From: an uncultured SAR86 cluster bacterium
Lineage (GTDB): Bacteria; Pseudomonadota; Gammaproteobacteria; Magnimaribacterales; D2472
Assembly (NCBI GenBank): GCA_902602595.1
Contig: CACKRJ010000006.1
Coordinates: 2,024-66,023, forward strand
Length of the DNA: 64,000 bases
Direction: 5' to 3'
Positions 59,888 to 62,742 of the stretch are shown one piece after another. Within the stretch, counting starts at the first letter, position 1. Every line of letters starts with the position of its first letter. The position numbers and the translations under genes were made by a program. The notes under the pieces are model-generated. The model did not search any database. It saw only the letters and a list, made by a program, of their open reading frames with translations, and was not told where the DNA came from.

Positions 59888-61075
59888 ATGAAAAAAAATC
59901 TTAATTTAATTAAACGAGGAATTGATGAGCTGATTAGTGAGGATGAGCTATTAGCAAAACTCAAATCAAACAAACAGCTTGTTGTGAAGGCTGGCTTTGA
60001 TCCAACTGCACCAGATTTGCATCTCGGGCATACGGTGCTAATTAATAAATTGAGGCACTTTCAACAATTAGGCCATCAGGTAATATTTTTAATAGGTGAT
60101 TTTACCGGCATGATTGGCGATCCATCAGGAAAAAATAAAACCAGACCGGCTTTAGATGAGGCAGATATCAAGGACAATGCAAAATCATACAAAGAACAAG
60201 TTTTTAAGATTTTAGATCCAAAATTAACTGATGTTAGGTTTAATTCTGAGTGGAGTAACCAGCTTGGCGCAGAGGGAATAATAAAACTTGCATCTCAATA
60301 TAATTTAGCCAGGATGCTTGAGCGAGATGATTTTAATAAAAGATATAAGTCCAACCAGACCATTGCGCTTCATGAATTCTTGTATCCTTTGATTCAAGCA
60401 AATGATTCTATAGCTCTCGAAGCAGATATAGAGTTAGGCGGCACTGATCAAAAGTTTAATCTTCTGGTTGGAAGAGAACTTCAAAGAGCATATGGCCAAG
60501 AGCCTCAGGTAGTTATTACTGTTCCCATTCTTGAGGGCTTAGATGGAAAAAATAAAATGTCTAAATCTTTAGATAATTATGTGGGTATCGACGAGTCTCC
60601 AAATGAAATGTTTGGAAAAATTATGTCTATTTCAGACGAACTTATGTGGAGATGGTTTGAGTTGTTAAGTTTCAAATCTATTGAAGAGATTGATGCTCTT
60701 AAAGCTGACCAAGCTAAAGGAAAAAATCCCAGAGACATTAAAATAGATTTAGCTAAAGAGCTTATTGCCCGTTTCCATGATGATAAATCAGCCGATCTTG
60801 CAGAATCTGATTTTATAAATCAGTTTCAAAAAAAGAATATTCCAGATGATATAGAAGAAGTATCTTTAACCCTATCTAAAAGCTCAATTCCCTTAGTTAA
60901 TCTTTTGAAAGATTGCGGGATGACCAGTAGTACATCTGAGGCAATGAGAATGATTCAACAGGGAGCTGTTAGAATAGATGAAGAAAAAATTATTGATACA
61001 AAACATATTATTTCTTCTGGCACTTCAGCTATTTACCAAGTAGGTAAAAGAAAATTTAAAAAAATAACTCTTTAG
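59888..61075 (+). CDS. tyrS: Tyrosine--tRNA ligase
   Basis: [27 protein letters not shown]-terminal S4 domain. Confidence 0.98.
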
Positions 61076-61108
61076 TTTTAATAATATAATTTTGAATCAA
61101 TATTAAAT

Positions 61109-61804
61109 ATGCAACAGTTTTTTTCTTCTATTAGTTTTTGTCTAAGTAATATTGGATACTTGCTCATCTTGTGCATCCCAGTGATGACGCTTGAAATTGC
61201 TCTAGCTAGTCTCATAGCTTCTTTAGATATTCAATCAAGTTCAGATACGGCAGCTCTTGAGGCAATTGGTGAAATATCTTTCCAAGTATTTCTTTTAGTG
61301 CTTGCATCTCTTATTCTTTCAGTGGCTTTAAGTGGTGGTTGTATGGCTGCTTTTCGCTCTTTGTCCGATGATGGGTTGTTGAGCCCATATCAAGCCCTTT
61401 TTGCAGGTTTAAAAAAGTTTTTCCCGCTCCTTTGGTCTAATATTTTGCATTCTATTGCATATGGGCTGGGATTTTTAATGTTAATTCTGCCTGGTTTTTA
61501 TTTGTATGGCCGCCTTGGATTATTTCCGTTATTTATTATGTTTGAAGATAAGGGCGTGATGGATTCTTTTGGAGCATCTTGGAATCTAACAGAAGAATTT
61601 GCAACAAAACTATTTACTCTTACCGCAATTTTTATGAGCATTCAGCTGAGCTTTGGATTTTTTGGAGGCATTATTGGAGTTGATGGATCCTTATGGTTTT
61701 TAATTGCAGCAACCACCTTAAAATACGCAACGTTAATGCCTTTGTTTTATTTATTTTATAGCCTCTATGAGTCTATTAAAAATAAACCACAATTAGGAAA
61801 TTGA
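61109..61804 (+). CDS. Multi-pass membrane protein (YciC-like fold suspected)
   Basis: Five to six hydrophobic segments, G..LLILPG.Y...R motif, S..ASW.LT. Confidence 0.6.
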   Translation: MQQFFSSISFCLSNIGYLLILCIPVMTLEIALASLIASLDIQSSSDTAALEAIGEISFQVFLLVLASLILSVALSGGCMAAFRSLSDDGLLSPYQALFAGLKKFFPLLWSNILHSIAYGLGFLMLILPGFYLYGRLGLFPLFIMFEDKGVMDSFGASWNLTEEFATKLFTLTAIFMSIQLSFGFFGGIIGVDGSLWFLIAATTLKYATLMPLFYLFYSLYESIKNKPQLGN

Positions 61805-62220
61805 AAAATATGAAAATATTAGTAATGGGACTGCCAGGCAGCGGCAAAACTTATCTAACCCAGAGATTAGTGCCATTATTGAATGCTGCATGGTATAACG
61901 CTGATCAAGTCAGGAAGATGTCCAATGATTGGGATTTTTCAGATGAAGGTAGAAAAAGACAATCCATGAGAATGAAAACTTTTGCAGATTTTGAAAAATT
62001 GCACGGAAGATATGTTGTATGTGATTTTGTTTGCCCAACTAAAGAAACGCGAGAAAATTTTGATGCGGACATAGTTATTTGGATGGACACCATCAAAGAG
62101 GGAAGATACGAAGACACTAATAAGCTTTTTCAAGATCCTCACAGTGTTGATTTTCATATTACAGAGTGGAATGAGCACAACCATGATGATGTGGCTAAGG
62201 AGATTTTAAGAAATGTTTGA
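61801..62220 (+). CDS. Small P-loop kinase, adenylyl-sulfate kinase (CysC)-like
   Basis: GLPGSGKT, NADQVR, WDFS.EGR.RQ..RM, CDFVCP, FQDP parallel CysC motifs; start 61801 (TTG) or 61810 (ATG). Confidence 0.75.
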   Translation: MKNMKILVMGLPGSGKTYLTQRLVPLLNAAWYNADQVRKMSNDWDFSDEGRKRQSMRMKTFADFEKLHGRYVVCDFVCPTKETRENFDADIVIWMDTIKEGRYEDTNKLFQDPHSVDFHITEWNEHNHDDVAKEILRNV

Positions 62221-62605
62221 TTGGAAAAAACCAACCGTTCAGATGCTAGGCAGATGGCAGCCTTGGCATGATGGGCACCAAGCCTTATTTAATAGATGCA
62301 TTGCAAAAACTGGTCAGGTAGCAATTCAGGTTCGTGACGTTCAAGGAGCATCTGGAGGAGATGGACAAGACGATAATCCTTTTGATTGGGATGAGGTTTG
62401 TAGAAATATCGAAGCAGGGCTTTTAAAAGATGGTTACAAAAGGGGTCAAGAATATGAAATTATGTTGGTACCAAATATTGTAAATATTACTTATGGTCGA
62501 GGAGTAGGATATACATTTGAAGAGGAGGTTTTTGATAGCGAAGTTACTGAAATCAGTGCTACAAAAATTCGTCAAAAACTTCGAGATGAAGGGAAGCTGG
62601 ATTAA
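62213..62605 (+). CDS. HIGH-superfamily nucleotidyltransferase (cytidyltransferase/NadM-like)
   Basis: LGRWQPWHDGH (compare GRFQPFHxGH), NPF, ISATKIR. Confidence 0.8.
   Translation: MFDWKKPTVQMLGRWQPWHDGHQALFNRCIAKTGQVAIQVRDVQGASGGDGQDDNPFDWDEVCRNIEAGLLKDGYKRGQEYEIMLVPNIVNITYGRGVGYTFEEEVFDSEVTEISATKIRQKLRDEGKLD

Positions 62606-62664: not shown

Positions 62665-62742
<78 letters not shown>

Follow-up and report, generated by a model that had tools for sequence, protein, structure and literature searches.

The closest described relatives of the proteins considered here are the bifunctional PAPS synthases, represented by human PAPSS1 (1x6v), and the bacterial fusions of Sat with CysC (2gks, 3cr8), which couple an APS-kinase-fold domain to a HIGH-fold adenylyltransferase within 550-630 residues. 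In ATP sulfurylases the forward reaction is unfavourable, and it is driven by the removal of pyrophosphate together with the pull of APS kinase. Sat proteins carry the signature motifs QxRN...HxxH and GRD. On the kinase side, Asp480, Arg483, Phe492 and Arg497 of M. tuberculosis CysC contact APS, the two arginines binding the phosphosulfate while the phenylalanine stacks on the adenine (PMC4373884).

In SAR11, Pelagibacter ubique keeps AprBA and misses both sat and cysDN; AprBA is treated there as a means of sulfite detoxification, and Table 3 of the same study has strains with both cysC and aprA (Smith et al., 2016; PMC5069961). The text of PMC2211403 that was consulted does not address the missing sat. 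In some SAR116 genera, aprABM and sat have been reported (PMC8547437). Phage cysC genes are treated as assimilation genes, with no partner mentioned in the available portions of the two reports concerned (bioRxiv 10.1101/2020.02.13.942896; PMC13584214). A full-text literature search, with most subscription journals and supplements outside its coverage, found no function assigned to the family of small transferases described below.

We consider a pair of genes in a window of 64,000 nucleotides, the whole stretch of DNA that was analysed, from a SAR86 bacterium. The pair codes for a miniature kinase and a miniature transferase, about 265 residues in all. We hold it probable that together they make a minimal PAPS synthase, whose predicted sulfurylase would belong to a third class, derived from NadM.

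The locus and its genes

The window lies on contig C6 of an assembly (G000) of 1.35 Mb that is 82.8% complete. The three open reading frames of the original prediction were all recovered (Table 1), and the overlap of 8 nt between kinase and transferase genes (62213-62220) is real, recurring in most related bacterial loci. The overlap proposed between membrane and kinase genes (61801-61804) probably does not stand, as it requires a TTG start that is not seen in homologues. Over 77 aligned homologue rows, the methionine encoded at ATG 61810 is nearly invariant and the lysine that follows it (K2) is invariant; since homologues start there, a gap of 5 nt most likely separates the kinase gene from the membrane gene.

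Table 1. Features of the locus, in window coordinates
Feature	Position	Strand	Remark
tyrS	59888..61075	+	Upstream flank, conserved in the genus
TATAAT hexamer	61085..61090	+	Between tyrS and the membrane gene; promoter role only putative
Membrane protein, 231 aa, weakly UPF0259/YciC-like	61109..61804	+	Genus-level neighbour, outside the module
Miniature APS-kinase-like protein, 136 aa (139 aa from TTG 61801)	61810..62220	+	Pfam, fold, invariant residues
HIGH-fold nucleotidyltransferase, 130 aa, NadM-like sequence; proposed non-canonical ATP sulfurylase	62213..62605	+	Profile, fold, gene context
tRNA-Ile(GAT)	62665..62742	+	Downstream flank

The TATAAT noticed upstream is present. As a promoter it was set aside, because a promoter scan pairs no -35 box with it and the hexamer is no more frequent than chance would have it (the + strand of the window has 28 occurrences, and 20 shuffles gave 32-54). 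The membrane protein scores under both family cut-offs tested. Metatranscriptome contigs from three runs, belonging to three studies, span parts of all three genes, a type of record that is blind to strand, level and shared transcript. Past the tRNA gene, the genomes of the genus diverge in gene content, which resembles a variable insertion site.

The miniature kinase

The kinase scores 25.5 bits against Pfam APS_kinase (PF01583), above the cut-off of 21.1, and about 21.1 bits against TIGR00455 (apsK), far below the cut-off of 138.7. In a fold search its structure model (pLDDT 92) retrieves four APS kinases as the best matches (Z 15.9-17.0, rmsd 1.9-2.2, 122-136 residues), with gluconate kinase next in the ranking (Z 15.0). 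With described CysC proteins (M. tuberculosis 4rfv; APE1195 2yvu) it shares the fold (Z 16-17, rmsd about 2 A), the P-loop, both sulfate-binding arginines and the stacking phenylalanine, whereas it differs by its small size, by YNAD in place of LDGD and by a shortened lid. D32, R35, F43 and R48 are invariant in the 77 homologue rows and, mapped via a canonical CysC, they align to D480, R483, F492 and R497 of the M. tuberculosis enzyme. D32 is the last Asp of the altered LDGD motif, the first Asp of which has become an invariant Asn. The lid usually comprises about 30 residues, and a canonical CysC is ~23 residues longer across the span that it shares with the miniature form; the SAR11-type kinase, of 164 residues, has a different insert of 27 residues at this position. 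Judging from its modelled fold and these residues, the protein would in all likelihood work like an APS kinase, though as an atypical member of the family.

The miniature transferase

The motifs GRWQPWHDGH and ISATKIR that had been picked out in the 130-residue partner are present. Conservation that extends from the window protein to those of phages and haloarchaea covers GRxQPxHxGH, R41, NP, P87, GRxVGY and ISxTxxR. A profile search of the PDB places the NMN adenylyltransferase MJ0541 on top (E 2.4e-5), and the score against PRK01153 is 22.8 bits for a cut-off of 127, in a match confined to residues 11-83. The structure model (pLDDT 82) matches NadM with Z 9.9 (rmsd 3.5, 117 residues) and Sat 1v47 with Z 7.9 (rmsd 3.9, 118 residues), the HIGH fold being common to the whole superfamily. 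Residues 91-120 of this model are poorly ordered, and they may take up their fold in an oligomer. In the HHpred- and Foldseek-type comparison once suggested for both proteins, the kinase leads to APS kinases, the transferase to NadM first and to Sat lower, and Foldseek returned no match for the transferase model at E <= 0.001. In the ESM Atlas the transferase meets only clusters named 'cytidylyltransferase', without a model.

NadM (MJ0541 1f9a; NadM-Nudix 2qjt), the best match in both sequence and fold, has in common with the miniature protein the N-terminal GRxQPxHxGH and NPF motifs, and on sequence grounds it is the likely ancestor. The miniature protein is nevertheless ~40 residues shorter, its profile match stops at residue 73-86, it has an invariant Arg41 where NadM has Gly-Ser, and its gene context is that of sulfur, not of NAD. 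With the Sat of sat-aprMBA operons (PF01747, TIGR00339), a protein of 390 residues, it has three motifs in common, namely HxxH, GR..G and, near the C-terminus, IS(A/G)TxxR. By contrast QxRN and the Asp of GRD are missing, GRWQPWHDGH standing for QTRNPMHRSH and YGRGVG for VGRDHAG. Family searches gave no match to PF01747, and hhalign against two Sat proteins yielded probabilities of 0.2-0.9%, that is, no sequence similarity. Direct homology with Sat was set aside, none being found at the profile level (hhalign under 1%). Sequence alone would suggest a place in NAD metabolism; gene context does not.

A quick tree of transferases, in which 41 of the 73 internal branches are open and one row is very long, places the window protein in a supported group of 34 rows with Gamma- and Alphaproteobacteria, Bacteroidota and Fidelibacterota, no donor or direction being readable from it. 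Elsewhere in the genome, contig C16 codes for a cytidylyltransferase-cupin protein (L231:1462-2256), and proteins of the same kind are present in 13 viral loci (best 80 of 141).

Distribution of the pair

We surveyed the best 80 of 141 viral loci, the best 80 of 157 genome loci and 29 loci of close relatives of the window, a best-80 choice that makes the sample lean to close relatives. Using tblastn, the kinase was found near the transferase in 79 of the 80 viral loci (best 80 of 141), in all 29 relatives' loci and in 62 of the 80 genome loci (best 80 of 157). Rare co-occurrence, which would have spoken against the pathway first proposed, is not what is seen. Similar pairs do occur in aquatic phages, as the original prediction had it, fused forms included. 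The functional unit is the two-gene pair, which is real and widespread. A single phage profile, PHROG 10255, spans the kinase and the transferase of the window from end to end (positions 2-113 and 124-228), and its members in Xylella phage Sano (gp35) and Stenotrophomonas phage DLP6 (gp227) are kinase-transferase fusions, the fused form of the pair; in their records they are annotated only as kinase or hypothetical, their C-terminal half having no assigned function. Among longer relatives of the transferase (6,618 proteins), about 95 of the 120 listed carry the APS-kinase Pfam domain in a hand count. Fusions to decarboxylase, chorismate synthase, peptidase and others among these longer matches were set aside as probable assembly chimeras.

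Sat and CysD were searched for in 50 carrier genomes, namely those of 49 of the 80 genome loci together with G000: Sat is present in four (46 do without it), CysD in none. Four genomes with the transferase alone have a full-size CysC elsewhere, and neither Sat nor CysD. There are also 11 plasmid matches, 10 of them haloarchaeal, and nine lie under a gene annotated cysC. In all five haloarchaeal plasmid loci examined, a sulfotransferase accompanies a fusion of CysC with the transferase, and the CysC half, which is full-size, scores above the apsK cut-off in both cases tested. The eleventh plasmid, from Microvirga, displays the order sulfotransferase, fusion, cysD, cysN, with both cysD and cysN complete. 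The Microvirga fusion beside cysDN, together with Sat in 4/50 carriers, means that the transferase is not strictly an alternative to these enzymes; the Microvirga case is one of a sulfur context that is redundant, and it counts against simple replacement.

The survey of neighbourhoods and fusions that had been proposed shows sulfotransferases and apr genes to recur, and no NAD-pathway family among the neighbours scanned. Out of 80 genome loci (best 80 of 157), 36 have apr, cysQ, sulfotransferase, hpsN-like, xsc or DUF2061 genes (apr in 17, sulfotransferase in 13, cysQ-like in 10, three loci coming from one genome) and 44 have none of the sulfur markers counted. In viruses (best 80 of 141 loci), a sulfotransferase match lies within the flanks in nine of 80, and the frequent neighbours are replication and glycan genes.

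A probable exchange with sat in SAR116 and a link with aprBA in SAR11

The family of genome G062 comprises eight genomes, three of which bear a SAR116/Puniceispirillales label, and aprM was found in six. In four of these six (G061-G064) the miniature transferase lies directly upstream of aprM. In the two others (G132, G133) this slot is occupied by a canonical Sat of 390 residues, above the family cut-off, and a search of both genomes with the miniature transferase profile found nothing. Twelve genes flanking the slot, including aprMBA and a full-size cysC, keep the same order in G132 and G062, with 55-97% identity, and a thirteenth pair at the edge is 40% identical. Between the miniature gene and aprM, G062 also retains a decayed, frameshifted remnant of the 3' end of sat (L117:6419-6573), 69% identical over 156 nt and scoring 53, where the best of 300 shuffles reached 31; none was found in four other gaps tested. 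Given this shared gene order and the remnant in G062, the miniature gene most likely displaced sat. One carrier, G063, has a Sat elsewhere as well, among unrelated genes. The published report of aprABM with sat in some SAR116 genera agrees with the Sat-bearing genomes seen here (PMC8547437). In its genomic setting the transferase behaves like a Sat-type sulfurylase: it lies upstream of aprMBA and occurs in genomes without Sat and CysD, the exceptions being the four carriers out of 50 that have Sat, and the Microvirga plasmid.

Among the 21 SAR11 genomes sampled (the family of G069), 14 have the transferase and the same 14 have aprB, so that presence and absence agree in 21 of 21. The two genes are within about 3 kb of each other in 13 of the 14 carriers, and in the remaining one the pair adjoins aprA at a contig end. 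As the genes are linked, this co-occurrence reflects the gain or loss of a single cluster and does not amount to 21 separate observations. No Sat was found in the 14 carriers. Five of the seven non-carriers were checked; G112 and G120 have cysD-cysNC, and G112 holds the only Sat of the sample. Outside the 21 genomes, a Sat-like gene coexists with the pair in G077. In one locus (L211, from G068) the miniature kinase is separated from its transferase and is flanked by aprA on one side and a gene for a TauE/SafE sulfite exporter on the other. In most SAR11 and HIMB59-labelled loci (L177-L194), aprA is followed by an unannotated open reading frame of 116-122 residues (for example L228:8019-8369), without any Pfam or NCBIfam match.

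The pair within its own order

No sat, CysD or CysH-family gene was found anywhere in the assembly (82.8% complete), which extends to the genome what had been said of the window. The claim that sulfotransferases are absent is true within the window, but four genes of the Sulfotransfer_3 family, two of them TPR fusions, lie on other contigs of the genome. From this gene content, and from the distribution given below, the most likely product here is PAPS that serves sulfation, as opposed to reduced sulfur. A CysQ-like gene is found on contig C1, and a search for aprA returned nothing above the cut-off.

Across four families of the order (f1, f2, f3 and f4), the miniature transferase is present in 31/36, 6/8, 0/8 and 1/8 genomes respectively, and a sulfotransferase in 35/36, 8/8, 0/8 and 2/8. 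The transferase follows the sulfotransferases: both are common in f1 and f2 and nearly absent from f3 and f4, a contrast of two lineages against two, in genomes that are mostly incomplete. Sat is present in one of 61 genomes of the order, and the miniature kinase is missing in the five non-carriers checked (5/5). One genome, G060, has the pair with no Sulfotransfer_3 match.

NadD follows another pattern: it is present in 0/36, 7/8, 8/8 and 0/8 genomes of the four families, G000 and its family being without the canonical enzyme. A transferase of 368 residues is found in 31/36, 0/8, 0/8 and 8/8. In G000 this protein is encoded at C3:57233-58336 (L232:892-1998); its C-terminal half is weakly NadD-like, it has no solved relative, and it is likely, from these similarities and this distribution, to be a non-orthologous NadD. 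The miniature gene, present in f1 and f2, cuts across this NadD/368-residue pattern.

Proposed function and its alternatives

Of the three outcomes first envisaged (minimal PAPS synthase, nucleotide-cofactor salvage, or new nucleotide product), the PAPS synthase has good support, from the genes around the pair as well as from the features of the kinase. Kinase and transferase are kept together and are frequently fused; the kinase combines an APS-kinase fold with the arginines that bind APS; and relatives of the transferase occupy the sat slot in SAR116 and are joined to canonical CysC in haloarchaea. To be sure, there is evidence against an ATP sulfurylase: sequence similarity with Sat is nil by the searches made, and the closest relatives, as judged from sequence and fold comparisons, are NMN adenylyltransferases. 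The divergence of the kinase, the redundant Microvirga and Sat-bearing carriers, the 44 genome loci free of sulfur markers, the small share of viral loci with a sulfotransferase and the case of G060 also weigh against this reading. Set against PAPSS1, the fused miniature forms also have the kinase first; fusion and domain order match, whereas the second domain is outside the Sat family, without the N-terminal Sat domain. The chemistry is known, the enzyme family new.

In this scheme the 130-residue protein would convert ATP and sulfate to APS, and phosphorylation of APS by the 136-residue kinase would give PAPS, from which the four sulfotransferases encoded elsewhere in the genome would likely draw their sulfate. 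Removal of pyrophosphate and the kinase would pull the unfavourable first step forward, and PAP would be recycled by the CysQ-like protein of contig C1. The same transferase would work in reverse in genomes of SAR11 and SAR116 and in those labelled HIMB59: breakdown of taurine or DHPS would give sulfite, AprBA would oxidize it to APS, and APS with pyrophosphate would give ATP and sulfate. We lean, if only slightly, towards the broader claim that the family adds a third class to the ATP sulfurylases, next to Sat and CysDN, derived from NadM and a third of the size of Sat, that it is the missing ATP-yielding step of SAR11 and SAR116, and that the pair is a PAPS supply of ~800 nt for bacteria, haloarchaeal plasmids and phages.

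Other readings have to be weighed. The transferase could act on APS without being a reversible ATP sulfurylase, either as an APS:phosphate adenylyltransferase (APS + Pi -> ADP + sulfate) or as an APS remover, the kinase being a competing branch. This would fit the slot beside aprMBA and account for the coexistence with cysDN in Microvirga, yet we find it improbable: with no aprA above the cut-off, no Sat and no CysD in G000, nothing else was found there to make APS for its four sulfotransferases. Furthermore, HIGH-fold enzymes work with NTP and pyrophosphate, and the APS:phosphate adenylyltransferases described belong to a different fold. The pair might instead activate a group other than sulfate (a sugar phosphate, a phosphonate or another oxyanion) to decorate surface glycans or virions by way of a new nucleotide product, as suggested by the viral neighbours, which include KdsA/KdsB-like, UDP-glucose dehydrogenase, epimerase and carbamoyltransferase genes, by the 'cytidyltransferase' label that the protein bears in its sources and by the divergence of the kinase. 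Our estimate is equally low here, because the exchange with sat, the fusion with canonical CysC and the sulfotransferase neighbours would go unexplained, although phage copies could have drifted.

A NadR-like salvage of NAD, with a NadM-like NMN adenylyltransferase and a kinase, is what the GRxQPxHxGH and NPF motifs and the best family, profile and fold match would predict, in a genome and a family devoid of canonical NadD. However, the 368-residue protein, whose function is deduced from its similarities, would fill that gap, its distribution over the order being the complement of that of NadD; NadD is present in five of five SAR11, SAR116 and related carriers tested, all alphaproteobacterial (four above the cut-off); no NAD-pathway family appears among the 90 and 50 recurrent neighbours scanned; and the kinase partner is APS-kinase-like or a canonical CysC, not a ribosylnicotinamide kinase. 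The salvage option of the original prediction is very improbable on these counts. Hardly any weight is left for a three-gene pathway with a membrane step, also part of that prediction. The membrane gene is on the same strand as the pair, 5 nt away, and adjoins it in 25 of 29 relatives' loci, where the order tyrS-membrane-kinase-transferase is kept, but it is near the pair in only four of 80 genome loci (best 80 of 157; missing from 76) and missing from 80 of 80 viral loci (best 80 of 141). In the five other genera of the family that have both (G032-G036), the two are unlinked, the membrane gene lying on another contig or hundreds of kb away. The membrane gene is a local neighbour in the genus, incidental to the module.

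If the miniature family is an ATP sulfurylase, the AprBA pathway of SAR11 would have no missing step and could serve these highly abundant marine bacteria as a source of ATP, the sulfotransferases of SAR86-like cells would gain their donor, and surveys that score sat and cysD would undercount sulfate activation. Phage genes named cysC would often be one half of a self-contained PAPS supply, not just aids to sulfate assimilation. Streamlined marine bacteria, haloarchaeal plasmids and many aquatic phages would then use the pair to supply PAPS for sulfating their own surfaces or products, a scaffold of NMN adenylyltransferases having converged on sulfate chemistry.

Accompanying genes

A gene of the DUF2061 family (71-86 residues) is present in 19 of 80 viral loci (best 80 of 141), usually between kinase and transferase (for example L026:2003-2233), and it is fused to the transferase in P0267; it is a better candidate for a third component than the membrane protein of the window. 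Two viral loci (L064 and L065:5154-5579) have, upstream of the kinase, a second and divergent copy of the transferase without HxGH and ISATKIR, possibly a non-catalytic partner. Phage phiRSL1 (L004:6989-14438) has the miniature kinase without the transferase, near a sulfotransferase, nucleotide-sugar enzymes and a dUMP hydroxymethylase, a cluster which hints at a sulfated DNA or glycan modification, and RsoM2USA likewise has the kinase alone. Finally, haloarchaeal plasmids (L247-L250 and L252) share a cassette in which the sulfotransferase and the CysC-transferase fusion are accompanied by a gene of the YqcI/YcgG family, and which may make a sulfated small molecule.
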